A program made the position numbers and the translations under genes. DNA of 63,639 nucleotides, the filler included, from Stramenopiles sp. TOSAG23-3 (Eukaryota): the NCBI GenBank assembly GCA_900128585.1. It is 3 parts of 3 records of this genome, joined end to end, with 100 filler letters (N's around TTAATTAATTAA, not from the genome) between each part and the next. Parts side by side here need not be neighbours in the genome. Positions count along the whole stretch, not along the records: positions 1 to 30,685 come from LT642227.1; positions 30,786 to 61,406 come from LT642228.1; 1 more part is not named here. The stretch is one strand, 5' to 3'. Below the pieces are notes generated by a model, which was not told the origin of the DNA, made no database searches, and saw only the letters and a list, made by a program, of their open reading frames with translations. Shown here in pieces: positions 1,657-52,385 of the stretch; positions within the stretch are counted from its first letter, which is position 1, and the number at the start of each line of letters is the position of its first letter.

Positions 1657-2292
1657 ATGAAGCGATTATCTCACATTATCATATCAGATTCGCCTAGCTT
1701 TTGTTCCAAAATTAAAAGTGTCACTACACGTTTTGCATTTATATATGGACCAATGTCCTCTGGCAAGACTAGTAAGCTCGTGAAATACGCCAAAAGGCTG
1801 TCTCAAGATTACCCAGAAAAAGTTATTCTACCGTACTTGCCCAAGGTCGATACCCGGACTCCACCTGGAACTGTAAACTCAAGAGATGGTTCCATTTTAG
1901 GTTTGGTGCAACCTATTGGTCACTGTGTGGAAATAAACTGCTCTCCGAACGGTTCGTATTATATTGACGAAGTACAGTTTTGTGACAAAACCATCTTTGA
2001 TTTAATAATATATATTGCCCAGAATCAAAATTGTGGATTTGTTGCTGCTGGTTTAGACTTAGATTTCAAAACTTGCCGGTTTGGGTTGACTTTTGACCTA
2101 CTGAACTTTATGAATTCTTGGACCTTAGATCATGAAGTGTATTTTCTGAAAGCAGTTTGTAAAATGTGTGGGAGTCCGGCATGTTTCACTGGGCGAATCG
2201 CTTCTTCCTCCGAGTTAATTTTGATTGGTGGTGATGAGCTATATAATCCAGTATGCCAGAATCATTTTTCTTCAAGAACGCACATCGAGTAA
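1657..2292 (+). CDS. tdk: Thymidine kinase (type II, TK1/tdk family)
   Basis: P-loop GPMSSGKT, DTR..SRDG, Walker B IDEVQF, AGLDLDF, Zn site AVCKMCG...IGGDELYNPVCQNHF. First ATG at 1657 (the ORF track starts at TTG 1612). Confidence 0.92.
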   Translation: MKRLSHIIISDSPSFCSKIKSVTTRFAFIYGPMSSGKTSKLVKYAKRLSQDYPEKVILPYLPKVDTRTPPGTVNSRDGSILGLVQPIGHCVEINCSPNGSYYIDEVQFCDKTIFDLIIYIAQNQNCGFVAAGLDLDFKTCRFGLTFDLLNFMNSWTLDHEVYFLKAVCKMCGSPACFTGRIASSSELILIGGDELYNPVCQNHFSSRTHIE

Positions 2293-2970
2293 TTAAAATT
2301 CGACTGTTAATTATAAAAATCTCCCAGGATTGAAATATGGAGGTGGTTGACAAGTTACGCCCTCGGCTAAGGAACAGGAAATAGCCCCGAAAACGCCGCA
2401 GCAAGCACTTCACAATTTTGGCGGGATTTTTTATTCAATTCGCTCTCAAGCCTACAGGCTACGATACTCAATCCTTCTCCCAAGAGTGATCCGCTGACAT
2501 CTTTACATCGGCTTTGTCTGTTTTTTAACATGTATGCCATGCCTTTTCAGGCGTTGTTGGTCATCTTCGTCGCAAGGGGGTTCATAATTGTTGGTGAAGA
2601 TTTCTTGGAACAAAAAGCTTTTCGAGGTACAAATGCATCGGCTTCATCTGAACCCACTATCAGGTGGCGGGCAGCTTCAATGCGAGCCAGCACTGCTAGA
2701 TAGACTCGGGCACATTTGTCTCAGGCTTTCCTCTCTATCTATCCAATCCTCAAAATCTCCAATTGGGTTGGAATACATTTTGCGTATAATGGGTTGCACA
2801 CTCTTTTGACAAATTGCATTACGATTAGAGTCCAAACTCCCGATTGATTTCGCCGGATGTTAGGTTGACGGTATGTCATTTTGATGCCCTCCCAAAAATT
2901 GAAATGCCATTTCCTTTTCGAGGTGTTTAATACGAGCGGCCAGAAAGGAATTATATGATACGAAGCATTA

Positions 2971-5003
2971 AAAGCAATAAAATTGCTGTTATTTAAGTAC
3001 TTCAAGTTCATGTGCTGCGAACTTATCTGTACTGTTGTGATTTTAGTAATCAATAAACCCTTGTCACTTAGTCTTGACTATCATTCTCATGTATTCCATG
3101 CATGATCCGAATCAGTGTGTGGAATTGCGCCGATGTTCAAAGACCCATAGTCAACATAAGATACGTTAAAAACAAAATTATGGCTGTTATGTAGAGAGTA
3201 TTTAAAACATATAAAAAGAAAAAAGAAAGGTATGTCAGTTCAAGAACAATATCTCCTCCTATTGCCGATCCTACCCAAGTTCTGGTCAAGATTCCAATTG
3301 ATTGGTCTTAAAAGTACACAGCCGCATAAATGTTTAAAGGGGCTCGTTGTCTGTGATACTGCTCAATGAAATAATGATCCGTATTGAGTTTGATCGTTTC
3401 CTGTTCTAATTATATTTACGTTTCAAAAAGCAAGAAAATTGGCTGTTAATTTAAGTAATTAAATTTAGCTTCCTCATACCCTAATCCTAACTTGGTTTTG
3501 TTTTAAAAAAGGACCTATGCATAATTCATTTTATCTAAATTTTAAGTAGATGTTTCAATTTGGTGTTAAACCACTCAAGGTTTACAAGCTCAGTACCGAC
3601 CTGAACAACCCCCCCCCCCGCAACCTTAACTCACAAATGGCAATTCCTTGCCTGATTTACAAGGCATAAAGCGAGCACCTCGAAAACAATTACGCCTCTG
3701 CTTGGAAAATCACACAAATTTTGGGTTATCTATAGGTGAGACATCGGGTGGGGAAGTTGACTACGGGTCATTTGACAGCGTTGCCAATCCAAACACCAAT
3801 TTGGATCATGCATGGAGTAAATCAGAAAATGTTAGTCTAGACTAAGTGACAAGAGCATATTGATTAGTAAAATCACAGGATCAGAGATAAGTTCTCAGTA
3901 TATGAAGGAACGTAAACCTTTAATGGTCGAAAGGAGCAGATTCACATTCGTGGTACATGAAGAAGATAGTTTTTAAATACTTAAATACCGTTTAGGATTC
4001 CCAGAAAGTACACTTACATACGTATGCGTATACGAACATGAAACAATCAACTTCCTTACCGACCATTATTTCATAGAGCAGTACAACAGACAACGAGCCC
4101 CTTTAAAACATTTATGCCGCTGTTTACTAGCCATATGGAATCTTGACCAGAACTTGGGAAAGATCTTTAAGATCAAACTCATAACCGACAATTCCTTCAT
4201 AGAGCAGTACAGCAGAAAACGAGCGCCTTTAAAATATTTATGCCGCTGTTTACTTGCCAATTGGAATCTTGACCAGAACTTGGGGAGGATCCTGCAATAG
4301 GAGGAGATATTGGTTCTTGAACTGACACCTTCTTTTTTCTTTTTTTATTTACATTATTTTAAATACACATAAATAACTGCTTATAATAATGATTCAGATC
4401 ATAAATGGAGTACATCTGAGAATGACAGTAAAGTTCGCAGATCATGAAGGAGTACAAAAACCTAGAATGTCCTAAATCATAAACAAGAAAAATTGGCTGT
4501 TATTTTATAGTAATTAAAATTATAGAAAAAAAGAAGGTGTCAGTTCAAGAACAATGTCTCCTCCTATTGCAGATCCTCCCCAAGTTCTGGTCAAGATTCC
4601 AANNNNNNNNNNNNTGTCTGTGGTACTGCTCAATGAAATAATGATCGGTATTGAGTTTGATCGTTTCGTGGTCGTATACACATACAGATGTAAATGTACC
4701 TTCTGGGAGTCCTAAACGGCTAGGCCGGTCAGCGATTTCTAAAAATCTAGATTTCAGTTCGCAGTACATTAATTTTAATTACTCAAATAACAGCCAGTTT
4801 TCAGTTTTCAGTTCGCAGTACATTAATTTTAATTACTTAAATAACAGCCAATTTTCTTGTTTTAATAACAGCCAATTTTCTTGTTTTTAATAATTTTAGT
4901 ACCTTTGTATTTTGTTTGTAATTACTTACTTAAATAACCCGGCCAATTTTGTATGTGTTTTTAATTACTTTTTTAAATAACAAGCGCCATTATTTTGTTT
5001 TTA
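2971..5003. mobile_element. Cluster of nested, 5'-truncated copies of the AATAACAGCCAATTTTCTTG-tailed retroelement family (both orientations)
   Basis: Approximate copies: 2971-3155(-), 3168-3400(-), 3425-3494(-), 3600-3989(+), 3990-4380(+), 4390-4480 with 4740-4888(+), 4481-4738(-), plus degenerate tails 4918-5003. Pieces match 19896-20180, 21130-21362, 30581-30648 and 41746-41840. The scaffold gap at 4603-4614 falls inside one copy. Confidence 0.85.
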
Positions 5004-10231: not shown

Positions 10232-11013
10232 CACACAATTCTCAGTTTACACAACTGCATTCCTGCTACTCCAAAATAATTCTGTATTATTGCAGAACCC
10301 GCAAAGCCTTTTTTGAGGGCAGGCTCTCATCTTGTGCTAATGCATTAAGCGATCATAAAATAAGGCTAATCCATTCTTGTTCGTCAAAAAGCGCTACATT
10401 CAGCCAGTTTTGAACTCAACGCCAGAGGAAGTCTTTCAAACAGTGTGAACAGACTCATACATAGATCGGTGGCAATCAAAGGGCTCAGTCGAATGGTACC
10501 GTAACAGCTACTGTATATTTCGGTAAAGGTGGTTCAGCACCTCGGTATATTGGATCCAATACAACCTGTTCGAGTCCCTTGGCCCAGTATTCGATAGGGC
10601 GTTTCAGATCTGCAGGCAGACCGGCCCTCCGCTTCTTCTCACAGGAGAATACGAGCTGGCGGCGGCCGCGTGCGGGATCCAGGATAGACCAGCCACAAAA
10701 TCGCATTAAAATGTACAAAGGAAGGAGTCCCTACGAAAAGCAAAATCCACCAGGGTCGCCCATCCCCGCATTGAGAGGGGAGAACCCCGAGGGGGAGGAG
10801 GGTCTAATGATTGGGATGATACCATGGAGGATCTAGTCACGTATGATTGCGGGGACTCTGTTTAGCATCGAGTGATCTCGACTATAATTTCCATTTGTAC
10901 TTTAAAAATGAAGTGCACGCCAATGAAGAGAGAGAATTAATTGAAAAACAAAATATAGGGGCTGTTATTTAAGATTTAAAAAAACCTTAATTCAATATTT
11001 ACCTAAACTATTA

Positions 11014-11060
11014 TTATTATTTGGTAAATAACAGCCAATTTTCTTGTTTTTATTATTTGG
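11014..11060 (+). mobile_element. 25-bp retroelement tail insertion with 11-bp TSD
   Basis: TTATTATTTGG (11014-11024), then TAAATAACAGCCAATTTTCTTGTTT (11025-11049), then TTATTATTTGG (11050-11060). Confidence 0.8.
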
Positions 11061-11425
11061 GTCATTTGAAATCGTCGAAAATCCAAAAATATCACTTCTG
11101 ATCATGAATGGAGTACACAAGAGGATGATAGTGTAGACTATTAGACTAAACGATAAGAGTAATTCGACCAAGAACAACACAGGAGCAAAACCAAATTGCA
11201 GTCCAAGAGGGACGTAAAACTTTACTGGACAAAATCAAATTAGGATTTTCGAATTGAATCATATGTAGACAATTTTACGGATAGTTTCACAGGATGTGCC
11301 AGGGTTTTCGTTCTCCCCCTAATACGGTGGTTTAGTATTTGTTTTTATGCATATGAAAAATGTTTAGACGTACACCGTTCTCAATTTCACTCAATACAAA
11401 AACAAAAAATTGGCTGTTATTTAGA
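11061..11425. mobile_element. Diverged retroelement 3' region (+) followed by an antisense tail copy (11398-11425)
   Basis: GATCATGAATGGAGTACACA matches the family's ORF-end block. 11245-11392 is similar to 22480-22593. AACAAAAAATTGGCTGTTATTTAGAGTAATTAAA starts at about 11400. Confidence 0.65.
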
Positions 11426-11784
11426 GTAATTAAAACGAACATTCAAAGGTTCCCTTTAACAAGAAGAAATTTCATTCCTGTCCATGTGCTGCAACTGTTT
11501 CTTCTCGCATTTTAGCACTTAGCCCATTGATAAGAAGAAAAATTATGAGTCGTCCTCCTGTGTACTCCGTGCATGGTCATCGTCCGTAGCTATACACCCA
11601 TCGTTGGTGGCTTCTGGCCAAATTGGACAGCCGACTGTATCGTGTGTTTCACTCCTAAATGTGTCAGAACTTGTGTGGTTTGTTGGACGGTCGCTTGTAG
11701 TTCTTAAAGATGCTTGTTTTCTGTTTCGATGAATCGCTCAAAGGATGACCAGCACCGATAGTGGGTCGGGGTCGTTGAGAAGTA

Positions 11785-19813: not shown

Positions 19814-19895
19814 GTTTATACTTTCGATTATAACCAAAATACATTGGACATTGGACTCTTCATATTTGTTTAATAAAAAAAATTTTGCTGTTATT

Positions 19896-21129
19896 AAAAA
19901 CGAGAAACTGGCTGTTATTTAAGTAATTAAAATTAACGTAACTACGAACTGATCTCTACTGTTGTGATTTTAGTAATCAATAATACCCGTGTCACTTAGT
20001 CTTGACTATCATTTCCATGTGTACTCCATGCATGATCCGAATCAGTGTGTGGAATTGCGTCGATGTCAGGAGACCCATAATCAACTTCCTCATCCGACCA
20101 AGCAGCGGCGTGAATGTTTTAAAGGTGCTCGTTGTCTGTCTTGTGAACCAGTCAGGGAGTTGTCATTTGTGAGTTGAGGTGTTGGGAGAGGGTCGTTTGG
20201 ATCGGTGCGCATAATCGGCGTTTGTGAGTTCTGTTGCGATGGTGAGGATTCGGTATGCATTGCGGTGGTTGTGGTTCTGCGGCGGGCTGATTGGGATCTC
20301 GTTCTGCTGGTGATGCTCTGGTCCCCTTCTGCTATGGTTGCGGTGTAGGATGTTCTCCTGTGACGACAGCCGAGGGTGACACTACTAGGGCCGGGGCGAC
20401 GTTGGATTGCTCGATGCTGGATTGGGTTGAGGATTGAACTTCCGTGTCATCACCTGGGGATGACACTATTAGAGTTGGGGCACTACTGGAGTCATCTCTG
20501 CAGGGATGCTCGTCCCCCGAGGGTTGTGGTTCTATTTTTGACTTTGAGTCCGAGCTGTCCAAGACCAGTCTTTGGGAGTGCCTGATAAAGCGCGCGGTGT
20601 CGACGCTTCAGCGGCATAGTCCATTGACAGGGCTGTTGGGACATAGGCATGGAAGATCCGGATACCTGATGCTATGGACTTGGCTACCACATTGAGTATA
20701 TTCCGCTGGAAGATTCGCATCTGCAAGTCCGCCCATTTCTGGCGTGCTGTTAGGTAATTGAGGCTACCAGAGGTGATTGGGGTGGGGAACTATATTTCCG
20801 CAAGGCGGTTAAAGAGGGCTCGGGCCCCCTCTGAGAAAGCCCCGCTGAGACTCACCCCAAAAAGTACTATTTGGGGGCGCCATCGCGGGCAGGGTTCAGG
20901 TGTCTGAAGATGCCAAGAACTTCCGCGTTGTCGTCGTTTTCTCTGAAATCATTTCATGCTTGCGCGTATTTTATACCTTTATATCGTTCGTTGGTCTGTA
21001 GTTGAGTGTATTTTCCCTGACAGAAATGAACATTCCAGTGCTCGGCTTGGACGTCCCGGTCGCGGCATATGTTATAGAGGGCGATGAACTGTTCCTCCCG
21101 TTTCGCTAGGCTGTTCGGGTTTTGGTTGA
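19896..21129 (-). mobile_element. Longest (1.2 kb) 5'-truncated, degenerate non-LTR retrotransposon copy with RLE-like ORF end
   Basis: Minus-strand broken frame ERYKGIKY...IVLFGVSLSGAFSEGARALFNRLAEI*...QKWADLQMRIFQRNILNVVAKSI, then a Ser/Pro-rich repeat stretch, ...EVDYGS...DHAWS...D*, a 3' UTR and the family tail. Flanked by the direct repeat GCTGTTATT (19887-19895 and 21130-21138). Confidence 0.75.
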
Positions 21130-21362
21130 GCTGTTATTTAAGTAATTAAAATTTATCTTTCTCATGTACCGCTAAAATGAATCTGCTCCTTTTATCCATT
21201 AAAGGTTTACATTCCTTCATATACTGCCAACTTATCTCTGCTCCTGAGATTTTACTGATCAATAATACCCTTGTCGCTTAGTCTTGACTATCATTTTCAG
21301 ATGTACTCCATGCATGATCCGAATCGGTAGGTGGATCAACAATGCTTTCAAATGACCCATAG
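21130..21362 (-). mobile_element. Older retroelement copy (variant 3' UTR) whose tail was split by the 1.2-kb insertion
   Basis: Reverse complement aligns to about 3760-3985; the rest of its tail (AAAATTTTGCTGTTATT) lies at 19879-19895. Confidence 0.75.
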
Positions 21363-21822
21363 TAGTATCGTTGTTTTTATCTATATAAAAAAAAACTAAT
21401 TCAGTTTAATCTATAAAAAGCCTAATTCCGTTTATCTAAATTATAAGTAAATATTTCAATTTGATGTTAAATCACTCAGGTTATTTGGTGTTAAACCACA
21501 CATGTTATTTTTTCTCCGATTTCTTTTCTTCTGTCTCAAATTTCTATTATTTTTTTAAATTATTTTACTCTGTGCGTTACTTGCTTTTTTTCTTTCTTTT
21601 TTTTTCTCAGATCAAGAAATCACAGAAGTAAATTAAAGCTTTAGTGAACAAAAACAAATTGCATTGCAAGGAAGGGTGAATTGGACAGGGACATGTGTAC
21701 GAGGAGAGCGATCGTTTAAACAAGAGACTGGTGGGTGACGAGAAGGGTCGTCTAAGCAAATCTACAGAAAAAGAACCGAAGCCGAACGCAATCGCCCAAA
21801 TTACCCCCAACAGCCAAAAGTC

Positions 21823-30521: not shown

Positions 30522-30580
30522 TGTGTGTTTGAACACTTTGCTGGAAGAAACTGTGCGATGGCTGACCAAGGCACTTCATT

Positions 30581-30648
30581 AAAAACAAGAAAATTGGCTG
30601 TTATTTAAGTAATTAAATTTAGCTTCCTCATACCCTAATCCTAACTTG
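30581..30648 (-). mobile_element. Retroelement tail copy (variant with CCCTAATCCTAAC segment), 60 bp after the RSP4/6 stop, near the contig end
   Basis: Near-identical to 3428-3494 (CAAGAAAATTGGCTGTTA.TTAAGTAATTAAATTTAGCTTCCTCATACCCTAATCCTAACTTG). Confidence 0.85.
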
Positions 30649-30685
30649 ATTCTGAAATTTTGTTTTTTCGTTGTTGGTTGTCAAT

Positions 30686-30785
30686 NNNNNNNNNNNNNNN
30701 NNNNNNNNNNNNNNNNNNNNNNNNNNNNNTTAATTAATTAANNNNNNNNNNNNNNNNNNNNNNNNNNNNNNNNNNNNNNNNNNNN
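30686..30785. other. Artificial contig linker (N44-TTAATTAATTAA-N44)
   Basis: 100-bp N run with a central six-frame-stop linker at 30730-30741. Confidence 0.97.
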
Positions 30786-30790
30786 CGCAG

Positions 30791-33700
30791 TTGATCGCGA
30801 CAGGCACGAATCGACATTTTTTTATAGACAGTGAAGCGTCATCGTTGAGTATAAGGTGGTTGAACATGTCCAGTGGGGCTGCACGTCGAGGGGCATCAAT
30901 ATTTGTCGGCGCCGCATCTCAAGTTAACATTTCACGTTGCGTCTTCTTCAAGAACACAGCTTTCCCAGCGAATGGCAAAGAATCGCAGGGTGGGGCTATT
31001 TATGCCGAACATCCAAAAGAGGGTAGTGGCGATACACTTTTCATCGAACACTCGATATTTGAAAGAAACTATGGTTTCTATGGTGGGGCTATACACCTGG
31101 CGAAATGGGCTGCTAGGATAAAGACTTGTAGATTTACATCGAATTCAGCCGCTTACGGTGGTGCGATCTATACCAGGTCTATCACATCACTCGTTGTGGA
31201 ATCCACCACTATCAACCTCAACGAAGTTACCAAATTTGGCGGCGGTGTGATGATAAAGGATTCACCAGGGGTTACTTTTAGTAATGTGCTGGTATACAAA
31301 AATAGAGCAGGGCAACGTGGCGGTGGCATATATGTGGATGGCACTCCTACCTGGTCCATCGTATTAAAGTTGTCAAACTGCGAATTTGTTGAAAATATAC
31401 AATATCAATTTCAATACGATTTCAACTCGGGTGGAGGTGGTCTATATCTAAAAAATGAAGCAGCCGTTAGTATAAGGGAATGTGGGTTTGTACGGAACGA
31501 AGCGGTATCTGGGTGTAGTGGGGCTAGCGGGTCTGGGTGTGCAGGGCACCATATAATGGTGCGCAAATCTGGCAATTTAGGAAGGCCATCTATCACATTG
31601 GTGAATACAAATTTTACAAGCATAGAAACGACATACTCCTTCTGGGGCTATCAAGATGGGGATGACCCGGGTCCTGGAGCGTATGGCAATCCAACAGACT
31701 GTTCTGCAAACCCCTGTTCCGCCCCACCGTTTACAGGGCACTGTTCCTTGAAGACAAACCCTTTGCATGGGACAATGTGTCAGAGGTACAATACAAGTAT
31801 TGTTCCCCCGCCGAGCAAAAATACAAGCGCTACTAAAAATACAACAAAGACTCGGCAAAACTGTTCCAAAGGAACACGTTTAACCCTTGGTGGGTCATGT
31901 TTGTTATGCGCACAGAACACAATTCAGCCAGCAACTAACCAACATACGTGTTTGCAGTGCCCTGCAGGGCATCGAACGATGGCAATTGGGCCTCGGACGG
32001 CAGCGCAGCATGATGCGCACACTGATTGCGTGCCTTCCAAGTTTGCGGTGAATGTTCTTACAGGGTCAGTTTTGACTGGCGGCGCAAATTTCTCGGTTGC
32101 AATTCCGAGTGAACAGAGAAACGTGTTTTCAAGATCCCGAGAAGAGACAATAATTTATATTGCTGGGATGAAAATTCCGTCGCTCGGGGCAGTATCTGGA
32201 AACCGCAAAGTTGTGCAGAACGCAGTGGTCCCAAACAAAGGACCTTGTGGGGTCGGGACTCCTGCTTGTGAAATGTGGGCACAGCTTCTCGTGTTTGATA
32301 GCATTTACAACGCTAGCGGCTCCACAGAGATCTATTTTGTGGAAAAGGCGTGCCCGACCTCAGAAAAATGCACGGAGATTCCTTCCGACTTTCTATTGTA
32401 CCCCCGGAAAGATTGTCAATGGCGGAGTGATCAACAATGCAATGAATGCCCGATTGGAGCACGATGCCCAGGGGGAAGGGAAGTCTGGGCCCTGCCCTAC
32501 TTTGGAATATTTTCAACTCGGAATGGACTGCAAGTTGCCATGTGCAAGGAACCATCAGCAAGGTGCAAGGGTTATGTGGACGCAGAAAGAAAAGAAATGT
32601 GCGCCCTGGGTTATGGCGGTATGCTTTGTGGAGGGTGCAAACCTGGGTTTTACGCCAATGTGGTGGGAAGCAGCGCGTGCCGTTCATGCCCATCTGGCTC
32701 TGGGGATAGTGCTTTCGCATCTGTCGCCGTCCCGGCATTGTACTTCATAGCTATAATGTCCGTTTCCACCGCCTTCGCCCTTTTTCTATCGTATCTTGCG
32801 TACAAGTATGGCGGCGGGACGGTGGAAGGTGGGCGTAATCGCACGTTGGGGTTTCTAGGGTACGTGTGCCTGTCTTTGAGTCTGTTGGCACAAGGCAGCC
32901 GGAAGGCAAACGGGAATCTTCCGGAGTATTTTCAGAGCCTGGCGTCACACTTGGCCGTATTTCAATTAGATCTAGCGGGCCCTGTGCCCCCTGCGTGCAC
33001 CCCCTATCCGTTTTGGAAGCACCTTGCTGTATTTTTGTTGTCGACAGTGTGCAGTTGTTGCATAATGATCTTCCTATCGAAACCAGGAATTCGCAAAATC
33101 ATAGTTTGTAAAAAAGTTCCCTTCGATCAGCTTGCTCACGGTGCAACTATTTGGCTCTTTTTAACGTACTCATTAATGGCTAATTTTGCAATGGAGACTA
33201 TGCATTGCGTCCCCAGCAATGGGAAAAATGAAGTTACAGTAATGGCCAGCAACCCAAATGTTGTGTGTTTCCAGGGGGATCACACATTCATATTTGCGTG
33301 TGCACTGATAGCCCTATCGCTTCACGGCCTTACGGTTCCTATGTACACGGCGAGGAGCGTTAAGGTGCTCAGAGAACATTCCTTGGGAAAAGCCCATCCC
33401 ATTGGTTCAGAAACAGAATCTCCCACAGTTTACGGCGAATTTGTTTGGAAGTATTTTTTATCGAACTCATACAAACCGGCATTTTTCTATTTCTATCACG
33501 TAGAAATTTTGTTGTTGTTCCTGGGCTCACTCTGCAATGAATTTCTGTTTTACAGTGCGCCCGTGGCGTACGTCACAATTTTTTCTGTCGGCCTAGTTTG
33601 CAGTGCAACGGCATATGTATATCACAGCCCGTTTGCGCTTGACCATAGGTGGAAGTTCATTGTAAGAATTCATTTATCGCTGTGCTCGTTTCTCAATGTT

Positions 33701-34588
33701 TTAACCAACTATTTTGCGGCACCCGTAGTCACATCGGCAGACGATGGAAAAACTTTGGAATGGCTCGCCCCTCTGAGTTTCTCAATGAATGTATTGCTGT
33801 TTGCTGTGCTCATTTTTGCATTTGGGAAGTTTTTAGTAGACGGTGCGGCCAAGGAAGACGAGGAGATAAATGCGCTTCCACAACGCAGCATAAGAGTTCA
33901 AAGTGAGATCAGGTGGTCGAATAACCCGATTGTGAATCGCACGACAGTAGAAATGCCTGTTCGTTGCAACAGCAACGGCGCAAAAGAGGGCCAGGAAAAA
34001 GCGACGGAAAACAATGGCACGGAACAAGCAATAAAATCTGCCGGGGTGCTCAGAACCGATCTTCCCAGGGTCTCTGTCGCATGGTACGAGCACTTTGATG
34101 CCCTATCCAACGACTCTTACTACGAGTGCATTAGAACTGCATCATCATGGGAGAAGCCATCCACAGCGGATGAAAGCGCCGAGGTTTCTGTTCATACACA
34201 TTCCGGGCAGAAATATTACCAAACTAAGACGAGCCAGGTTACTTGGGAGAGACCCGAGGGTGTGCCAATCCATGTAGTGAGTCGCCCATCGATCGCAGAC
34301 AGTGAATTTGCACGTTCTTCTAGTGCAGATGCCAAAACGGGTTCCTTACTAGCAGCAACTCGGCGTAGATTAAACCATGTAAAAGATAGAAGTAGAGTGT
34401 TAGCACCCAGTAATATTAAATCAAATGGGATTTGGTGGGAACTAACAGATGAGCATGGAAAAACCTGCTACTTGAATACGGCAACGGATGAAGTAATATA
34501 TTCTCTACCCAAAGGATGGGTTAAGGCTATGGCTATGGAGAGGTTCAGTAAAGGCTACGGGAGCCATAGTCTCACAGAGCCTACGTGA
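30791..34588 (+). CDS. Receptor-like membrane protein: right-handed beta-helix repeats, Cys-rich repeats, multi-pass TM region, C-terminal WW domains (5' end lost at the contig break)
   Basis: GGAIY/FxxNxA repeats; CxxCPxG Cys-rich units; about 7-9 hydrophobic helices; WW-like WYEHFD..SYY...SSWEKP, GQKYYQ..VTWERP, WWELTDEHGKTCYLNTAT. Confidence 0.85.
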   Translation: MIATGTNRHFFIDSEASSLSIRWLNMSSGAARRGASIFVGAASQVNISRCVFFKNTAFPANGKESQGGAIYAEHPKEGSGDTLFIEHSIFERNYGFYGGAIHLAKWAARIKTCRFTSNSAAYGGAIYTRSITSLVVESTTINLNEVTKFGGGVMIKDSPGVTFSNVLVYKNRAGQRGGGIYVDGTPTWSIVLKLSNCEFVENIQYQFQYDFNSGGGGLYLKNEAAVSIRECGFVRNEAVSGCSGASGSGCAGHHIMVRKSGNLGRPSITLVNTNFTSIETTYSFWGYQDGDDPGPGAYGNPTDCSANPCSAPPFTGHCSLKTNPLHGTMCQRYNTSIVPPPSKNTSATKNTTKTRQNCSKGTRLTLGGSCLLCAQNTIQPATNQHTCLQCPAGHRTMAIGPRTAAQHDAHTDCVPSKFAVNVLTGSVLTGGANFSVAIPSEQRNVFSRSREETIIYIAGMKIPSLGAVSGNRKVVQNAVVPNKGPCGVGTPACEMWAQLLVFDSIYNASGSTEIYFVEKACPTSEKCTEIPSDFLLYPRKDCQWRSDQQCNECPIGARCPGGREVWALPYFGIFSTRNGLQVAMCKEPSARCKGYVDAERKEMCALGYGGMLCGGCKPGFYANVVGSSACRSCPSGSGDSAFASVAVPALYFIAIMSVSTAFALFLSYLAYKYGGGTVEGGRNRTLGFLGYVCLSLSLLAQGSRKANGNLPEYFQSLASHLAVFQLDLAGPVPPACTPYPFWKHLAVFLLSTVCSCCIMIFLSKPGIRKIIVCKKVPFDQLAHGATIWLFLTYSLMANFAMETMHCVPSNGKNEVTVMASNPNVVCFQGDHTFIFACALIALSLHGLTVPMYTARSVKVLREHSLGKAHPIGSETESPTVYGEFVWKYFLSNSYKPAFFYFYHVEILLLFLGSLCNEFLFYSAPVAYVTIFSVGLVCSATAYVYHSPFALDHRWKFIVRIHLSLCSFLNVLTNYFAAPVVTSADDGKTLEWLAPLSFSMNVLLFAVLIFAFGKFLVDGAAKEDEEINALPQRSIRVQSEIRWSNNPIVNRTTVEMPVRCNSNGAKEGQEKATENNGTEQAIKSAGVLRTDLPRVSVAWYEHFDALSNDSYYECIRTASSWEKPSTADESAEVSVHTHSGQKYYQTKTSQVTWERPEGVPIHVVSRPSIADSEFARSSSADAKTGSLLAATRRRLNHVKDRSRVLAPSNIKSNGIWWELTDEHGKTCYLNTATDEVIYSLPKGWVKAMAMERFSKGYGSHSLTEPT

Positions 34589-37117: not shown

Positions 37118-37293
37118 TCTTCTTTCTTTCTTCTTCTTTTTCTTTCTTCTTCTTTTTCTTTCTTCTTCTTTCTATTCTTCTTTTTTCTTCTTTTTTCTTC
37201 TTTCTTTCTTCTTCTTCTTCTTCTTCTTCTTCTTCTTCTTCTTCTTCTTCTTCTTCTTCTTCTTCTTCTTCTTTTTTCTGCTTCTTCTTCTTC
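37118..37293. repeat. (TTC)n microsatellite / polypyrimidine tract
   Basis: Pure TTC run at about 37206-37271 inside a longer degenerate T/C tract. Confidence 0.95.
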
Positions 37294-37739
37294 TACGCCT
37301 AGGCGTAGTCTAGGAAGTGCGATCAAGAACTGTATTATATTACATACTATATATATATAATTTGTTTTTTATTATTTTTTTTATAGTCTATTATAAATTT
37401 TTTTTTTTTTTTTAATTATTATTATATACTAATTCGACTTGTTGGTATTATACGGTAGATCGATAGTATATTATTATTATTTTTTTATTTTTTTTTATTA
37501 CTACATTATATTATTACAGCAGTATTATATTATATTAAATTAATAATTAATTATTCTTTTTTGTTCTTTTGAATGTGTACACTATTAATTCCAAACTGGT
37601 GCAGTAGTAAAACTGAAGGTTTGAATGCGATTGTATTAAAATTGTGTGATTAAAGTTCAAGAGTGAAATGGTTGTACCAAAAGAACGGAAGGAGGTCGTG
37701 ATTCAATTGTAAAGAACAAACGGACCGAGGTTACCCACA

Positions 37740-38456: not shown

Positions 38457-38556
38457 TCGTTCAACACTTCAAAAAAACAAGAAAATTGGCTGTTGTAATG
38501 TAAATTAAAATTTATGTACTGCGAACTGATCTCTACTGTCGTTCAACACTTCAAAA
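38457..38556 (-). mobile_element. 64-bp retroelement 3'-end insertion with perfect 18-bp TSD
   Basis: TCGTTCAACACTTCAAAA at 38457-38474 and 38539-38556 flanks 38475-38538, which matches the end of the 19896 copy. Confidence 0.9.
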
Positions 38557-38626: not shown

Positions 38627-39613
38627 TCACATCATTGACTTAAAGTTTTGCTCCTGGACGAAGCGATACAACCGCGACGATTGAAAGTCAGCGTTAGTTT
38701 GGGGCAGGGGTGGAAAGCTCAGAACGTCAAATACATCCTCGCAACCCAAAAATTCTGGAATTTCCACATCATTCTTCATGCGATTCAACTCAGCGGCTTG
38801 GTGCAAGTTCAACGGCGGGGGTGGGATCTGGTTCAAATACGAATGCACTAGCTTCACCGGCGAAGGAAGTTTTGCGCCGGAAGTTGCATTCGCACACGCT
38901 TCTATAATATTGTCTATGTTTCCGTATTCCTGCATAAGCAAAGCTCCCCTCTTCGGGCCCACCCCGGTTACTCCAGGCAAATTGTCTACTTTGTCCCCAA
39001 GTAAGGCAAATAATTCTGGCAATAATCCCGGCGTTACCCCGAAACGATCCACCACACTAGATTCATCGTACACCTTACCGGTATGAGAATGTTCTACCGT
39101 AACGTTGTGACTATCATTGACCATTTGCAACATGTCTTTGTCTGGGGATATAATGTCAACCCCGGCAACAGCGTCCTGCGACGAAGAGAGTTTTGCGACC
39201 GTAGCGATCAAGTCGTCGGCTTCGACGGACGGGATTTGAAACTGTGCAACACCTAGCGTGGCCATTGCTTGCATGGACAGCGGAAACTGCGGCCGTAATT
39301 CATCTGGCATTGCCGATCGGTTGGCTTTGTAACCAGAAAAATCATTGGAACGAATCAATCGCGAGGGATGATCCCAGCAAACAGCTGCCCCACTATATCT
39401 TGGACGTTTCGCACAGTCGGACAGTCCAACCGTCGCATTGTTTTCACAAGGGCGCTCTAACAACGAGATTATACTTCTCAAAAATGTGTAGACCCCGTTG
39501 ACTTTAACACCGTTCGGATTGTACAGGTCCGCCTTGTTTCCATAAAAAGCCTGATACAACAGCGCGTTACCGTCTATTAAACAGATACGCCCATTGGCGA
39601 TTCGAGTCACCAT
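38627..39613 (-). CDS. Stand-alone 5'-3' exonuclease / flap endonuclease (DNA Pol I N-terminal family)
   Basis: LIDGNALLYQAFY, YKANRSAMPDELRPQF, EADDLIAT, SPDKDMLQ, H3TH LLGDKVDNLPGVTGVGPKRGALL. First ATG at 39613. Confidence 0.92.
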   Translation of the reverse strand: MVTRIANGRICLIDGNALLYQAFYGNKADLYNPNGVKVNGVYTFLRSIISLLERPCENNATVGLSDCAKRPRYSGAAVCWDHPSRLIRSNDFSGYKANRSAMPDELRPQFPLSMQAMATLGVAQFQIPSVEADDLIATVAKLSSSQDAVAGVDIISPDKDMLQMVNDSHNVTVEHSHTGKVYDESSVVDRFGVTPGLLPELFALLGDKVDNLPGVTGVGPKRGALLMQEYGNIDNIIEACANATSGAKLPSPVKLVHSYLNQIPPPPLNLHQAAELNRMKNDVEIPEFLGCEDVFDVLSFPPLPQTNADFQSSRLYRFVQEQNFKSMM

Positions 39614-40577
39614 CTTGCACTGCAGAGTTAGTTCTACCTCCACCTTTCCCACCACGCTATCAACCGGTGAACTTCACAACTGCCAATGGTCCGGTCTACC
39701 CCAACGTTTTCAAAGTACAGCTACCTTCAATCCTTTTACTACAATTTTCAATATGTATGAAAAACTTAATCCGTCAAACAGAATTAATATATATAATCGA
39801 TCATCGAAAAACATATTCCTAAAACAGTTTAATTCATTCTATACACTATATGATATATAATAAGTAAATAGATGTGAACGAAGAAAAAATATTAATAATA
39901 TAATTAATAATAATACGTGTATAATACTAAAAATAAATAACAAAAAATTTTTTTTTTTCTTCTCTCTCCTCTCCTCTTTGCCGGCGGGGAGGAGATATGT
40001 ATTATGAGAAAAGTGACCAAGTTTACCGTTTGGAATACGAAACGCTCTCCTTTTATGAATCGTATAATACAATTAGAATGATAATATTGATAGAATATAA
40101 TTATAAGCTAATAGTATGATTACATGTTTTTAATTAATTTAGCTATTATAAGTTTAATACATTTATTATGGTTGTTTTACCGATAAAAACAATTTGTAAA
40201 AAAGGACTTCTTTATTATAATATTAAAACAACAGGAAACAACATCATACACAGAATAACACTACAGGTTTTATTATTTTTTTAAATTTATTTTTATATAT
40301 ATATATTATATTATGTGTTGGTAGTATGAGAAGAAGAAGTAGGCGAAAGGTAACAAACACATCATCAGGAGGAGACGCTTTCTTTTCTCAACAAGAGAAT
40401 CAGCTCATTACGTACTAGAACGGGGTGTTCAACAGCGCGGAAAGAAGAGGAACAAAGAAGGCCAGTTCCGTTTTGTTTAATTAACACCTACATTCCTTTC
40501 ATCCATTAGGAAAACACGACGCTTTCCGTTCGAGGGAAATTGCCAAGACTCCCTAGTAAGAAGCTATCTAATAGCAA

Positions 40578-41612: not shown

Positions 41613-41745
41613 GGTTAGTCGCAATGTAGTAACCTATAAAGCTAATTTTACGAAGCACTAAAACTCTTATCTTCAGGTATGATATGTTCATGTAGTATCA
41701 TATGATAAGTTAATTTTTCTTTCTGACCTTTCCTTTTTCATTTTT

Positions 41746-41840
41746 AAAAACAAGAAAATTGGCTGTTATTTAAGTAATTAAAATTACTGTAGTGCGAACT
41801 AAAATCTAGATTTAAGACATTCTAGGTTTGCATTCCTCAG
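41746..41840 (-). mobile_element. Retroelement 3'-end copy of about 95 bp (variant UTR)
   Basis: Family tail plus AAATCTAGATTTAAGACATTCTAGG, whose reverse complement matches 4445-4478 and 4741-4800; possible degenerate TSD TCCTTTTT.A.TTTTAA. Confidence 0.8.
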
Positions 41841-45194: not shown

Positions 45195-46490
45195 TGCAAC
45201 GCAAAGGAAATTTTTTTGCCTGGTAAGTGAATGTTCGTCCACAGTAATGCAAACTCACTTTTTTTGCCTGGAACTACAACGCACATTTGACGATATTGTA
45301 AATTGTTTGAAGCCCGCTCAATAATCCTCAATGATATTTTCTTTCTTTCTGTACACTTTTTAGGAGTAGTAGCGGTGAAGAGAGAAGGAGGAGGAAGAAG
45401 GGGGAGGGGGGGAAGGAGGAGAGGACGAAATGTTGTTTTGTTTTTTGTTGTTGTCTCTCTTCTTTCTTCTTATTGTGTGGTCCTGTCTGTCGGTGGGGGA
45501 TGGAGGGTTGTATGTTGTTGCTCTTCTTTCTTCTTTTTATTATTATTATTGGTGGTGTTGCGCTATTATGGCTGCTGCTGATCCTAATGCTATGTGGTTT
45601 ATTAATATTTTTGTGGAGGAAGAGAGAGAAAGAAGAAAAAAAAAAGGCAAAAAGAAGAAAGAAGAGAAAAAAAAAATGATAAAAAAAAATGCTGAAGAAA
45701 AAAAAAAGTAAAAAAAAACATAAAAAAATAATATTAATAAAATATAGAAACAACACTCTCTAGGAAATACAGGTAATAGCGTTAATGATTGAAACACGGT
45801 GGACGGAAGAAATACAATTAATTCAATAGGATTTATATCATCACAACTACAAATTATAACTACATATAAAACTATTTTATAGTTATAGTGTATATAATAA
45901 ATAACTATATAAATATTTTTTGCTTTGTCAGTTAAAAGTTTTTGGAGGAGAACTGCGAGTGAACTTCGAACTGTGATGAACCTATTTCTATTTCTATGCT
46001 ATGATGATGAATTTTGAAAACCGTTATTCTCTTTATGTCTAGAATGATTGATGGTAAAATGTATACTTAGATACTTATAGATACTGTAGCGGGTTATTTT
46101 TGCCTTGCCTGTTGGGGTGGTATAAAGTCGTCCTCCAATATATTCTTTCTTCTTTTTTTCTATCACTAAAACTACTCCAAATTATTATATCATCGTTTTG
46201 AAACCTCTACTCTGTCCCTGTGAAAAAATAAATAAAGAAGAAGTGGTGAGTGAAATCATCTTCTGTTCTTTCATACTTTTTTGTTGCTGTTGAGTTTACT
46301 AAGGCAAGTATTGTTCTTGCAACACAGAAACGGAACATCAGGGTTATACGTTTTTAACAGTATATGAGAGAGCAATACTCCTGGCGCGTTATTTGCAACG
46401 AGGAAGCAACAAACAAAAAGAACAACGAATCTTCTGAACGAACTTTAAACATCCCAGCCAAGAAGCGTAGAAACTTCAGAGCACTACGAA

Positions 46491-49439: not shown

Positions 49440-49445
49440 GCTTTT

Positions 49446-49461
49446 TTAAATAACAGCCAAT
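49446..49461 (+). mobile_element. Minimal remnant of the retroelement tail
   Basis: TTAAATAACAGCCAAT, a 16-bp exact match, 7 bp after the stop codon. Confidence 0.55.
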
Positions 49462-49631
49462 GATTTAAAACTTAACTAACACAAATTAATATCATTAAAC
49501 TTAAAATCTTATTTTTCAAAGGATTCATTTTTCATCATCAGGAAAAATGCTTGTTGACGGAGTTCGCTTTCAGACCAACGACTGGCTGGACGTGCAACCC
49601 TATCCACCGGACTCTCCGCTCTGGAACACAT

Positions 49632-52385
49632 CTACTCCTCTGCCAATGGCGTGTCCTTGGTCGGTTCACCTACCTCCCTTAATTTCCCTAATTTCACGGC
49701 CAATTCGCACAGCTGGTTAATCGTGTCTACGGTCGCTATTTTTAATTTTTTTAAAATGTTCGTTGCAAACTCAATTTTTGCTTGAGTAACACCGCACTTA
49801 GCCATAGTTTCTACTCCAGCAGCGAACAACGTGGGGACCCAGATTTGAAGGACTTGCCCCCACAATTCCTTTCGAGTGGGAGAAAATAATTGAGTACCGA
49901 CATCCATTGCGAGAGTCCCATACAAACACGCCGCCCGGTCCTGTTTGTGTTTCGCACATGCTGCCGCTTCGGCCAACAAAGCCCATGCAAATCTTGACGC
50001 TGGAGTATTGGCCTTGTTCTCAACGGTTTCGAAGTGAGCAGCGTCAAGCGTAGCTTTGCATTCTGCATCCGAATGGTGGTACATAAAGGCATAGGCAAAA
50101 TTTATTGTCTTCGTACTTTCTTCTACTTCCTCGGGATTGTCGTACGCACTCAACGCTTCTTTTGCTACTTGGACCAGTTCCGTAACTGCAACTTTCGTAT
50201 CTGCATCGTCCATTGAAACCCAGGCACACAGTTTTGCCAAGAATTTTGATGTTTCCTTTCGGATGTCTGCGACCTTCAATGGGGTTGCCAATCCAGATTT
50301 AATCTCTTTCAAAGCGATAAGACCACGCATCGACTCTTTGAAGTGTGACGCGGCCGCAACACCGTTCCCGAAACTGGCTTTTATGGTGCCCAACTGTGCG
50401 TTGAGCTCCATGACGCGAGACAATTTGACAGTTTCTGGGTCTTTTATTTGGGCCGCGGGGGTGCCAACACGGGAAACAGCGTCGTTGCCGTTGCTGCCCG
50501 CAACGCTTTCTAAAGTTTCAGCTTCCAGCTCCTGGTTCGCCGCCGTGGCCGCTTCCTCCAACATTTTTTCCACGCCAGTGTCACTGGAGCCGATCAAGCA
50601 TAATGCAACCTTTGCCAAGAGGCGGCGGGCAGTAGACAACAGCGCATCGTTTACGCTCGAATCGGTTGATTCCACGGGGGCCAGCTTAATTAAAATGCGG
50701 CACGCTCGTGCGCTTGACATAAAGTCGCTTCTACTATGAGCTGTGATGGCTTCAATCTGCAGGCGGGCTGCAACACGTGATATTTTAACGGACTTGTACC
50801 CTAGCGCATCGTAGCACTCTGGATACATGGTAAAAATAGCTCTCCTGTCGGTTGGGACCGCTCGGCTCCCTCCCAGGTTTTGGAGTGCCTCACTCCCTGC
50901 CTCTATTTTAGCGTCAAGATCATGGCCATCCACAGACTCTGCCCCATTACAAAATACCAAGCTTTGCTCTAAACTTTCTATGGCGTCGCTATACGCAGTG
51001 AGCAAGGCACGTTTTCCTGTAGGGTTTGGCAGGCCTAGTGCCGCTTCGGCAACCTGCTTCGCCGAACACATTTTTCCCTTGCTGACGAGGGAAATTACAA
51101 AAAAGAAAAAATTACGACGGTCGGTCTCCGACGCCTTTTCCGTTTCCAGAGATTTGAACGTTTCAATGCTCTCGAGCATTATTTGTACCGCTGCGTCCGT
51201 GTTGCCTGCCATAAGGGACGACATCGCATGCAGCACGGTGGTCATTCCTCGCTCTTGCCCTGTTTTCTTTTCGAACAATGGGTGTTTAGAAGCTTCCGCT
51301 AACAACTGTTCCGTATACTCTGCGGTCGCCCCACTGATACCAGTGCACTGCAGCGATAATTTACTTGCAGAGATAATCGCGTCCAGGTATTCTTGTGACT
51401 CTTCCCCGTGCACATCTTTGACCAGGCGCACTTCCATTTTTGCTATCTGGGCTGCCTGCGCGAGCCTGAACGCGCGTTGTCTGGGCATTGCATTCGCGAT
51501 CATCACTTTCGTTGTCTTCGCCTCTCTAGTCATTCGCAGCGCCAGCAAGGAGCCCTTGACAGGGGTTTGGTTTCCGGTGGCGAGACGGGTGCTTCGGGAC
51601 GTCCAGCCAAGCTTTTGGCAAGCCTTCAAGTCTCCCAGCTGAGCTGAACAGAACCCGCACAAATATTTTGTAGCCGGCATCATGTCTGGGTCGACCTTTT
51701 TGCCTGCCCTCAAGTCGGAGAAGTACTTGTGATTTGCATGGGCAAATGCCGTGTTTGCAAGTCGGTACGGGTTGGGAAACGTAAAAAAGTCGATGCACTT
51801 TTGAAACAGACCGTTGGCGGTAAAATCTCTTCGACCAACTTTGGCTGTGTCTTTGAAGTAATTGATTTTCTGAAGGTTCATGCAAGCAACGAAGTGTTGC
51901 AGGGCTTGTTTTGAGTCGCCTGTGAGGAAAGCAAGCTCGACCTTTTGCCAGCCTTTGTGCGCGAAGAACTCATTTGCTTGGGCAGTCGGGATAGGGGTGT
52001 CCCTCCTGATTGGGCTTTGCGCCCCTCCCGTCAAAGAGTTGAGGAACCCTGCCTGGAATCCTGGGTTGGCGGCAGCACGTGGCGGCGCAGGGGCTGCGTT
52101 TTTCTTCCTCGCCGCGGCCGCAGTCAAGGGCTGAGAGGCCTTCTTCGCTTTCGCAGAGGCCCCACCTTTTGCTCTGGCAGCGCCGCTGTTCCCACCCTTC
52201 TTCTTTTTCTTCTTCTTTTTCTTCTTTCGCTTTCCACCCGTCCCAAGAAAAAAGTAACCCGCAGCAGCCATCACCACGCCAGCACCGACAACCGCAACAG
52301 TTGTCAACAACCCCGACCCAGACGTTTGCTCGCTCTCTTTTGGAACCTCTGGGAGGTCCCCAAACGTCGGTTTGATCGTTTGCAT
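49632..52385 (-). CDS. Hypothetical membrane-anchored, Ala-rich helical (TPR-like) protein
   Basis: 917-codon ORF; N-terminal TM helix (LLTTVAVVGAGVVMAAAGYFFL) followed by poly-Lys. Confidence 0.8.
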   Translation of the reverse strand: MQTIKPTFGDLPEVPKESEQTSGSGLLTTVAVVGAGVVMAAAGYFFLGTGGKRKKKKKKKKKKGGNSGAARAKGGASAKAKKASQPLTAAAARKKNAAPAPPRAAANPGFQAGFLNSLTGGAQSPIRRDTPIPTAQANEFFAHKGWQKVELAFLTGDSKQALQHFVACMNLQKINYFKDTAKVGRRDFTANGLFQKCIDFFTFPNPYRLANTAFAHANHKYFSDLRAGKKVDPDMMPATKYLCGFCSAQLGDLKACQKLGWTSRSTRLATGNQTPVKGSLLALRMTREAKTTKVMIANAMPRQRAFRLAQAAQIAKMEVRLVKDVHGEESQEYLDAIISASKLSLQCTGISGATAEYTEQLLAEASKHPLFEKKTGQERGMTTVLHAMSSLMAGNTDAAVQIMLESIETFKSLETEKASETDRRNFFFFVISLVSKGKMCSAKQVAEAALGLPNPTGKRALLTAYSDAIESLEQSLVFCNGAESVDGHDLDAKIEAGSEALQNLGGSRAVPTDRRAIFTMYPECYDALGYKSVKISRVAARLQIEAITAHSRSDFMSSARACRILIKLAPVESTDSSVNDALLSTARRLLAKVALCLIGSSDTGVEKMLEEAATAANQELEAETLESVAGSNGNDAVSRVGTPAAQIKDPETVKLSRVMELNAQLGTIKASFGNGVAAASHFKESMRGLIALKEIKSGLATPLKVADIRKETSKFLAKLCAWVSMDDADTKVAVTELVQVAKEALSAYDNPEEVEESTKTINFAYAFMYHHSDAECKATLDAAHFETVENKANTPASRFAWALLAEAAACAKHKQDRAACLYGTLAMDVGTQLFSPTRKELWGQVLQIWVPTLFAAGVETMAKCGVTQAKIEFATNILKKLKIATVDTINQLCELAVKLGKLREVGEPTKDTPLAEE

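Follow-up and report, generated by a model that had tools for sequence, protein, structure and literature searches.

The short tail of a retroposon in Stramenopiles sp. TOSAG23-3 lies almost exclusively in spacers between convergent genes in the 63-kb window (the whole stretch of DNA analysed here), as the original prediction had claimed; in an independent sample of metagenome contigs it is likewise nearly confined to gene 3' ends, and most of its spacers are convergent. On balance, we lean slightly towards an integration that is aimed at the zone after stop codons. The fuller reading, that of a LINE-like retroposon whose integration would be tied to the region where Pol II genes undergo termination or 3' processing, a new 'safe haven' and the mirror of the one used by promoter-seeking elements, is in our view evenly poised.

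Location of the tail in the window and in metagenome contigs

With up to 3 mismatches, the 21-mer core of the tail has 11 matches in the window against 0.01 expected from shuffles; an 11-mer core has 15 against 1.5; a looser 9-mer scan gives 27 matches, 18 with a tail context and 9 without, as judged by eye. On a window gene map drawn from ORFs and Pfam domains (8 convergent, 8 divergent and 3 tandem spacers), 17 of the 18 tails fall in convergent spacers, 7/8 of which are occupied with 7, 3, 3, 1, 1, 1 and 1 tails, and no tail was found in the divergent (0/8) or tandem (0/3) spacers, the divergent ones being 0.75-2.1 kb long. The Fisher test on 7/8 convergent versus 0/11 other spacers gives p=1.6e-4, and p=1.0e-3 (6/8 convergent) when the relic at 49447-49465 is left out. 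This relic had been counted as a copy in the 49439/49632 spacer; tail sequence is indeed present there, but as an internal piece of 16 nt that lacks the terminus. The spacer 56159/56424, already described as lacking the tail, is confirmed empty (56160-56423). The copy described after the RSP4/6 stop codon is present about 55 bp downstream, but it runs into a contig end at an artificial linker; since the window is made of three contigs joined together, the gene on its far side is unseen. RNA contig edges at 49447 and 49458 (stops) and 49496 (start) were considered as transcript ends and rejected, because contigs break at the tail repeat. The tail element may be a cause of assembly breaks after genes, e.g. 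that of window contig 1.

Table 1. Tail copies, relics and linkers in the window (positions along the whole stretch).
Position	Strand	Feature	Remark
2967..3155	-	3' part (189 nt) of family-A copy, degenerate tail	86% identity to 19893-20085
3167..3406	-	Family-C copy, tail core at 3182	84% identity to 4480-4602, 83% to 4348-4171
3425..3494	-	Family-B copy, 70 nt	97% identity to 30581-30648
3744..3987	+	Inverted family-A body fragment without own terminus	Inverted repeats; 84% identity to 21363-21135
4480..4602	-	Family-C copy with tail, reaches 12-N gap 4603-4614	
4749..4893	+	Three tails head-to-tail: 54-nt unit x1.9 and 24-nt unit x2.2	
10945..10982	-	Degenerate tail, inverted pair with 11013-11058	
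11025..11049	+	25-nt copy between 11-bp TSDs	
11398..11435	-	Tail copy, ~38 nt	
19870..19895	-	Terminal piece of older tail, interrupted by next insertion	Read from the sequence
19896..21129	-	Family-A copy, 1,234 nt, frameshifted ORF, nested in older tail	
21130..21363	-	Rest of older copy split by the 1,234-nt insertion	
30573..30685	-	Family-B copy ~55 nt past RSP4/6 stop, reaches contig end	
35193..35219	-	Mini-copy, ~27 nt, truncated just past core	
38475..38538	-	64-nt copy, perfect 18-bp TSD (38457-38474, 38539-38556)	Spanned unchanged by one metagenome contig
41742..41837	-	Family-A copy, ~72-96 nt; shared tail 41744-41786	Very high summed depth, many different flanks
49447..49465	+	Relic: 16-nt internal tail piece, terminus absent	
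30686..30785 and 61407..61506		Artificial 100-nt linkers between contigs (44 N, TTAATTAATTAA, 44 N)	

The independent sample comprises 139 distinct metagenome sites, none of them a window site, and was anchored on the exact 21-mer in assembled contigs, which favours short, young copies. Among 58 tail-bearing spacers, 43 are convergent, 14 tandem and 1 divergent (locus L064), a distribution to be read against null spacer-class frequencies drawn from one 63-kb window and with ORF-based gene calls, several 'tandem' ones resting on ORFs of 100-142 aa without Pfam matches. Neighbouring gene ends are 3' ends in 125 of 143 cases (binomial p=7e-21 against 0.5). The flanking ORFs are predicted to be ordinary host genes: Pfam domains were found in 61/109 of those scanned, and several profiles end at the element-facing ORF end. 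Neither an orthologue of a window gene nor a presence/absence pair was found among the metagenome loci. Copies with intact target-site duplications (TSDs) carry the same bias (n=17: 13 convergent, 4 tandem, 0 divergent).

In tandem spacers, 12/14 copies lie closer to the 3' end of the upstream gene (median relative position 0.16), and this clustering, about 20-160 nt from the stop codon, survives the removal of the 200 or 300 nt beside the downstream gene (KS p=0.013 and 0.004, respectively). Distances from copies to the nearer stop codon vary widely, with a median of 87 nt and a 10th-90th percentile range of 24-211, TSD-defined distances running from 3 to 1292 nt. The copy nearest to a gene had been described as often antisense to it; this is the case for 5/7 window genes but does not extend to the independent sample, where copies are oriented at random with respect to the nearer gene (21/43 antisense in convergent spacers, 6 vs 8 in tandem ones). 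AT-rich 18-nt windows number 45 per kb in divergent vs 20 per kb in convergent spacers, and W5TAAA sites 6.5 vs 3.9 per kb; AT-rich target-like sequence being commoner in divergent spacers, the supply of targets is not the source of the convergent bias. TACGAAG was also considered as a fixed-distance 3'-end signal and rejected, since the window does not show it generally and the position table built from 110 flanks lacks it.

Anatomy and class of the element

The tail is the common 3' end, of about 42 nt, of several related retroposon families, labelled A, B and C, which also have in common a homologous ORF C-terminus into which all longer copies read; it is strongly conserved across families with differing bodies. 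All copies have the same 3' terminus and a variable other end (5' truncation). Their length spans 19 to ~1,230 nt, the longest in the window reaching 1,234 nt, and most are tiny, with a median of ~70 nt and many of 19-60 nt. They close with a U-rich run and a final AA, without poly(A), and are flanked by TSDs of variable length (9-18 bp), as seen in the window with the perfect 18-bp pair around the 64-nt copy and the 11-bp pair around the 25-nt copy. Exact TSDs of 11-15 bp occur at 35/139 metagenome sites, around inserts of 19-335 nt (39 raw matches minus 4 dropped as internal-repeat artefacts). Variable-length TSDs, a constant 3' end and variable 5' truncation are those of a target-primed (non-LTR, LINE-like) element, and the copying route is target-primed reverse transcription. 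In the metagenome flanks, the junction preference is T(A/T)AAA plus AT-richness, with no extended target motif beyond it in the flanking sequences examined.

The copy number is high, the summed depth over the tail being ~1e4 to 4.5e4 vs ~5 for the flanks, which are many and different. Depth and spanning were checked in Logan contigs of four runs, DNA and RNA contigs among them, where no empty site was found at 38475-38538 or 41742, the listed joints being short-sided and between tail copies. Insertion at or in older copies is recurrent: about 10/35 TSD-flanked inserts abut or sit within another copy and at least 4 reuse the same nucleotide (by eye), and in the window GCTGTTATT at 19887-19895 recurs at 21130-21138, on either side of the 1,234-nt insert. 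Such landing of new copies at old ones could amplify an initially weaker bias.

The ORF pieces of this 1,234-nt insert resemble the metagenome locus L028:1090-1932 and, by eye, fragment proteins. The element ORF matches no Pfam family, and its 152 relatives are all of at most 419 aa, the only long relative, which carries a FAE1 domain, being rejected as a chimeric gene call; its AlphaFold model is helical and weak (pLDDT 62, pTM 0.31). The sequences scanned yielded neither a reverse transcriptase nor an endonuclease ORF, and no RVT domain was seen in 24 window ORFs, 4 element ORF pieces and 109 flanking ORFs, the copies available being short assembled ones.

Several other classes were considered and rejected. 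An L1-like element is at odds with the U-rich run and AA that stand in place of a poly(A) tail. A SINE is non-coding, with a head that bears a Pol III promoter derived from tRNA, 7SL or 5S RNA; here the window holds no Rfam family or tRNA, and the longer A, B and C copies enter the ORF C-terminus. A MITE or other TIR DNA transposon does not fit single-ended copies with TSDs that vary from 9 to 18 bp, and inside the sole inverted pair (10945-11058) sits a 25-nt insert that has an 11-bp TSD of its own. Helitrons insert between A and T without target-site duplication, so the TSDs rule them out. A SIDER-like co-opted 3'-UTR retroposon would lie consistently in sense within the mRNA and have a regulatory effect; the orientation here is random (21/43).

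Origin of the location bias

We propose that one DNA strand would first be nicked at an A/T-rich site, usually ending in a TTAAAA-like run, and that the nicked end would anneal to the terminal U-rich bases of the element RNA, from where it would prime reverse transcription. The latter would usually abort after 20-350 nt, and a second nick 9-18 bp off would give the target-site duplication. Integration would be confined to a zone of ~50-300 bp past stop codons: convergent spacers would receive copies of both orientations from either side, tandem ones would be entered beside the upstream stop, and divergent ones would be spared. As suggested by fixed copies, the bias would arise at integration and not through later loss. 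It might be guided by the machinery of termination or 3' processing, by chromatin or by the DNA topology between converging polymerases, and two routes could be considered: (i) a tethering to termination or polyadenylation factors; and (ii) the exploitation of a DNA state (nicks, R-loops, supercoiling) made by converging polymerases.

Selection alone could give the same map if integration in AT-rich intergenic DNA were near-random, promoter-side insertions being purged and post-stop ones persisting, an explanation that we consider unlikely. All data concern fixed copies, no de novo or polymorphic insertion being found among those examined, and fixed copies would show the same bias if 5' regions are constrained; if the population is very large, as we assume it to be in this marine picoeukaryote, selection would remove promoter-side insertions of even slight harm, and both the copy at L064 and the 2/14 tandem copies closer to the 5' side point this way. 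However, most copies are tiny, while the 0.75-2.1-kb divergent spacers hold more target-like sequence, and tandem copies remain stop-proximal (~20-160 nt) once 200-300 nt of promoter-proximal DNA are excluded. Copies 3-40 nt from stop codons are evidently tolerated within likely 3' UTRs, the same nucleotide is used repeatedly, and de novo promoter insertions of other elements are viable, as reported for Zorro3 (PMC1965478) and T1 (PMC9942834). Safe-haven targeting to gene ends, as first suggested, is favoured by the location bias, the intact-TSD bias, the distribution of target-like sequence and the stop proximity in tandem spacers; very efficient purifying selection would fit fixed copies too.

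More doubtful is the idea that positive selection has kept the tail because it would work, where genes converge, as a 3'-end element, a terminator or an insulator. The near-saturated occupancy (7/8 convergent window spacers), the conservation of the tail across differing bodies and the reported regulation of mRNAs by Leishmania SIDER remnants in 3' UTRs would agree with such a role. The co-opted 3'-end signal of the original prediction, taken as strand-specific, nevertheless fits poorly, since orientation is random (21/43 convergent; 6 vs 8 tandem) and the stop-codon distance broad; moreover, copies vary from 19 to >1,200 nt and pile up in nests, one convergent spacer has no tail, and the tail folds, as RNA or DNA, no better than shuffled sequence (z 0.1-0.9).

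Self-homing, in which element RNA would anneal to existing tail DNA, new copies would mainly join old ones and the convergent bias would be inherited from a few founder insertions, seems to us more improbable still: it leaves unexplained why founders lay in 7/8 convergent and 0/11 other spacers, most TSD-flanked inserts sit in unique AT-rich DNA with no older tail at the junction, and four single-copy window spacers point to the same class bias without an older tail. In its favour are the 24-nt and 54-nt tandem tail units at 4749-4893, the 1,234-nt copy nested in an older tail, the ~10/35 inserts at or in other copies (by eye) and the three window spacers with 7, 3 and 3 tails. That the pattern stems from chance, from assembly or from the way the window was put together is scarcely credible: the window does consist of joined contigs, and the tail repeat is a place where contigs break, but 11 matches stand against 0.01 expected in shuffles and the bias replicates at 139 sites outside the window.

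Comparison with known systems

In LINE/SINE partnerships, the reverse transcriptase recognises a 3' tail common to both partners, and HAL1 is an example of an ORF1-only element. The families described here likewise have different bodies and one short 3' tail and, as in HAL1, the ORF of the longest copy encodes no RT; it matches no Pfam family. They also recall prokaryotic stem-loop repeats, small high-copy repeats biased to gaps between converging genes, but those are moved by a DNA transposase, whereas the present element is eukaryotic, RNA-copied and without a stable fold. Leishmania SIDER1/2 are extinct retroposon remnants in 3' UTRs, sense in mRNAs and with a shown regulatory role; the resemblance lies in short truncated remnants concentrated past coding regions, the difference in TSDs that are intact here, a random orientation and a regulatory role that is undemonstrated.

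TRE3 of Dictyostelium lands downstream of its target genes, and TRE5/TRE3, like yeast Ty1/Ty3, are known to be tethered to a host factor. These retrotransposons of compact genomes target genes that RNA polymerase III transcribes (PMC6101501, PMC5911963). Here too a retroelement in a gene-dense genome occupies a narrow gene-adjacent zone, but what serves as landmark is where protein-coding genes have their 3' end, and not tRNA genes, none of which was found in the 63-kb window.

In the de novo maps of two studies on compact genomes, insertions prefer the promoter-side (divergent) spacers and are scarce in convergent ones (PMC1965478, PMC9942834). Of 30 de novo insertions of Zorro3, an L1-type element of Candida albicans that has known EN/RT ORFs and a poly-A tail, 16 were divergent, 13 tandem and 1 convergent (PMC1965478). 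Our element resembles Zorro3 in being target-primed at A-rich targets through pairing of the RNA tail, in its gene-orientation bias and in its repeated use of sites; it differs by a mirror-image bias (43 convergent/14 tandem/1 divergent), by a U-rich end and by the lack of RT in the ORFs scanned. In the T1 and Hermes work, insertion classes were likewise scored by flanking gene orientation; no Cryptococcus T1 insertion was reported between convergent genes, and T1 and yeast Hermes are accessibility-driven DNA transposons with a preference for divergent spacers and an avoidance of convergent ones (PMC9942834). A simple preference for open promoter chromatin would therefore predict the opposite of the pattern observed here.

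Word searches of the open-access literature retrieved no eukaryotic retroelement preferring convergent spacers, which leaves its absence unproven. Known region-specific retroelements target tRNA genes, promoters, heterochromatin, rDNA or telomeres. If integration is indeed aimed at the zone after stop codons, the element would mark termination zones in an uncultured protist without RNA data, its tail would be a practical marker of gene ends and orientation in fragmentary marine eukaryote assemblies, and the 3' end of protein-coding genes would join the list of transposon niches.

Position of the tail in the window and beyond

The genes of the window are intron-poor and eukaryotic according to the ORF map and Pfam (thymidine kinase, TPR, kinesin, RSP4/6, DeSI, CCDC113, MMS19, MORN protein, actin-like protein and others). 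Two identical 100-nt blocks are artificial joiners, so the window consists of three contigs (1-30685, 30786-61406 and 61507-end, the first two of 30,685 and 30,621 nt) and gene adjacency across the blocks is not real. The same DNA was found in public marine metagenome runs and in small single-organism assemblies (8-12 million letters), its occurrence in the marine runs indicating that the source is an uncultured protist from the sea that has flagellar genes, perhaps a MAST-type stramenopile.

When the window was scanned for the tail, the ~42-nt 3' end common to the element families, its 21-mer core gave 11 matches at up to 3 mismatches (0.01 expected) and an 11-mer core gave 15 (1.5 expected); of 27 matches to a 9-mer, 18 were judged to have tail context and 9 to lack it. 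On the ORF map, which has 8 convergent spacers, 8 divergent ones (751-2133 bp) and 3 in tandem, all but one of the convergent spacers are occupied, by 17 tails in total, and the 11 others hold none (Fisher p = 1.6e-4, or 1.0e-3 leaving out a 16-nt relic at 49447-49465), in agreement with the original observation of an element almost exclusively between convergent genes. A copy had also been placed 60 bp after the RSP4/6 stop: an eighteenth tail does begin ~55 nt past it (30573-30685), but its tandem setting is an artefact, the copy running into the end of contig 1. Window segments recurring in metagenome loci, these loci themselves being picked around tails, all lie within convergent spacers or at the contig-1 end.

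Searching metagenome contigs for exact matches to the 21-mer gave at least 133 loci with at least 148 matches, which represent at least 139 distinct sites, all different from those of the window. The bias was assessed only on the 80 loci with 2-kb flanks, with ORFs of at least 100 aa called and repeats masked. Genes were present on both sides at 61 instances, representing 58 distinct spacers, of which 43 are convergent, 14 tandem and 1 divergent. Counting single sides, 3' ends made up 125 of the 143 neighbouring gene ends (p = 7e-21 against 0.5), and copies that had intact duplications and a gene on either side followed the same bias (13 convergent, 4 tandem, 0 divergent). Pfam covered 110 of the 116 neighbour ORFs; ordinary host domains were found in 24/42 and 37/67 flanking ORFs (together 109 of those covered), one further neighbour ORF had no Pfam match, and several profiles stop exactly at the tail-facing ORF end. 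An ORF of at least 100 aa was overlapped by 7 of the 139 listed instances, mostly at loci with 300-nt flanks or where the ORF reads out of the element. These data confirm the observation and generalise it beyond the window, and what is preferred is the stretch following a stop codon, not convergence as such.

Nature of the element

Exact duplications of at least 11 nt were found at 39 of the 139 listed metagenome sites, 4 being dropped as internal-repeat artefacts; at the 35 retained sites, 11-15 bp duplications flank inserts of 19-335 nt. The terminus is constant in all copies and the opposite end varies, recognisable copies having a median length of 70 nt (5th-95th percentile, 28-280). Taken together, the duplications, the constant terminus and the variable other end are characteristic of copies made by target-primed reverse transcription and heavily truncated at the 5' end. 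The motif as originally written corresponds to the antisense strand of the element, so that the tail forms the element's 3' end. Insertion junctions at the listed metagenome sites read T(A/T)AAA in AT-rich surroundings, and no longer target motif was found at or around them; priming by a TTAAAA-like DNA end pairing with the U-rich end of the element RNA would fit this junction sequence.

Summed depth over 41744-41786 reached ~1e4 to 4.5e4, against ~5 for the adjoining sequence, and many different flanks occur at either end, which indicates that the tail is very abundant and that the bodies diverge past ~42 nt. Three or more body families carry this tail and have homologous ORF C-termini. The element ORF (in the longest window copy and at 1090-1932 of metagenome locus L028) is conserved in a helical N-terminal part and in a C-terminal motif, between which lies an acidic, Ser-rich middle; its product is predicted to be helical in a weak structural model. 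It matched no Pfam family, and its 152 relatives in a library of 1.84 billion proteins are all short fragments, no longer relative being found there. No reverse transcriptase was seen in the scanned window ORFs, the element ORF pieces or the flanking ORFs. The element represents a group of target-primed retroposons. In P0084, a public gene call, a FAE1-type condensing enzyme is fused in frame to the element ORF, probably because a host gene reads through into a copy lying in sense orientation at its 3' end.

Features of the window and of metagenome locus L068
Feature	Position	Description
Artificial joiners	30686-30785; 61407-61506	each 44 N + TTAATTAATTAA + 44 N
Copy	38475-38538	64 nt; perfect 18-bp flanking duplication TCGTTCAACACTTCAAAA
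Copy	11025-11049	25 nt; 11-bp flanking duplication
Inverted tail pair	10945-11058	two tails ~60 nt apart, MITE-like look; MITE reading rejected, one arm being the 25-nt insert with its own duplication
Longest window copy	19896-21129	1,234 nt, frameshifted ORF; nested in older tail; flanked by GCTGTTATT at 19887-19895 and 21130-21138
Mini-tail arrays	4749-4893; 19870-19919	24-nt units, head to tail, same target nucleotide reused; also at many metagenome loci (e.g. L007, L009, L020, L098)
Polypyrimidine/polypurine tracts	37118-37294; 45620-45740; 57171-57282	long, e.g. (TCT)59; all in divergent spacers; the three sites form inverted repeats with one another; perhaps characteristic of promoter regions in this genome
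Exonuclease-domain gene	38627-39673 (-)	bacterial-type 5'-3' exonuclease domains PF02739, PF01367 on a eukaryotic contig; may encode an organelle-targeted enzyme
Large beta-helix proteins	30788-34588 (+); L068 3191-4021	Chlamydia-PMP-type repeats and ephrin-receptor-like domain; recurrent, in the window and in L068, a related locus
173-aa ORF	21680-22201 (+)	no Pfam family; within large convergent spacer 19814-23266; small gene or mobile-element part, either possible
Exo_endo_phos ORF	L068 373-1854 (+)	493 aa; ends 146 nt ahead of a tail antisense to it; may be a LINE-type endonuclease or belong to the host

Possible causes of the bias: integration, selection or signalling

Target-like sequence is commoner in spacers that lack the element: AT-rich windows number 45 per kb in divergent versus 20 per kb in convergent spacers, W5TAAA sites 6.5 versus 3.9 per kb, and divergent spacers retain TTAAAA sites at 2.65 per kb. 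Of the 14 copies in tandem spacers, 12 are closer to the stop codon of the upstream gene (median relative position 0.16), and this clustering persists when 200 nt (p = 0.013, n = 12) or 300 nt (p = 0.004, n = 9) beside the downstream gene are excluded, rows with an insert in the excluded zone or too short a remaining spacer being dropped. The closest intact-duplication copies lie 3-40 nt from stop codons and, by eye, ~10 of 35 inserts abut or sit within other copies, at least 4 reusing the same nucleotide. Target supply, tandem position, stop proximity and site reuse thus favour an integration bias, and on balance we consider integration targeting to be the best explanation.

That selection alone shaped the distribution seems to us rather unlikely. 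Several points weigh against an integration bias: all observed copies are fixed, neither the metagenome contigs over the window copies nor the loci showed an empty allele, the null spacer-class frequencies are drawn from one window, and an organism of this kind could be under highly efficient selection. The safe-haven targeting to gene ends proposed originally is partly supported by the stop-proximal bias. The co-opted 3'-end signal, also proposed, is not supported in a strand-specific form, given a random orientation, a broad distance to the nearer stop codon (median 87 nt; 10th-90th percentile, 24-211) and a tail fold no better than that of shuffled sequence: the antisense tendency of the stop-nearest copy, seen for 5 of the 7 window genes, is lost in independent convergent (21/43 antisense) and tandem spacers (6 antisense versus 8 sense). 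The tail may have a bidirectional role.

Comparison with known systems

No eukaryotic retroelement with a convergent or 3'-end preference is described in the literature found by word searches, which is limited evidence for the novelty of this preference among eukaryotic retroelements. Of 30 de novo insertions of Zorro3 in Candida, 16 are reported in divergent, 13 in tandem and 1 in convergent spacers (PMC1965478), T1 of Cryptococcus has zero insertions between convergent genes (PMC9942834) and Hermes in yeast shows a pattern similar to that of T1 (cited in PMC9942834), a spacer preference that is the mirror image of that of the present element. Its closest analogies are the tRNA-gene-targeted TRE and Ty elements, the Leishmania SIDERs, which sit in 3' UTRs, and the bacterial REP and SPRITE repeats, located near convergent 3' ends (PMC3184786).
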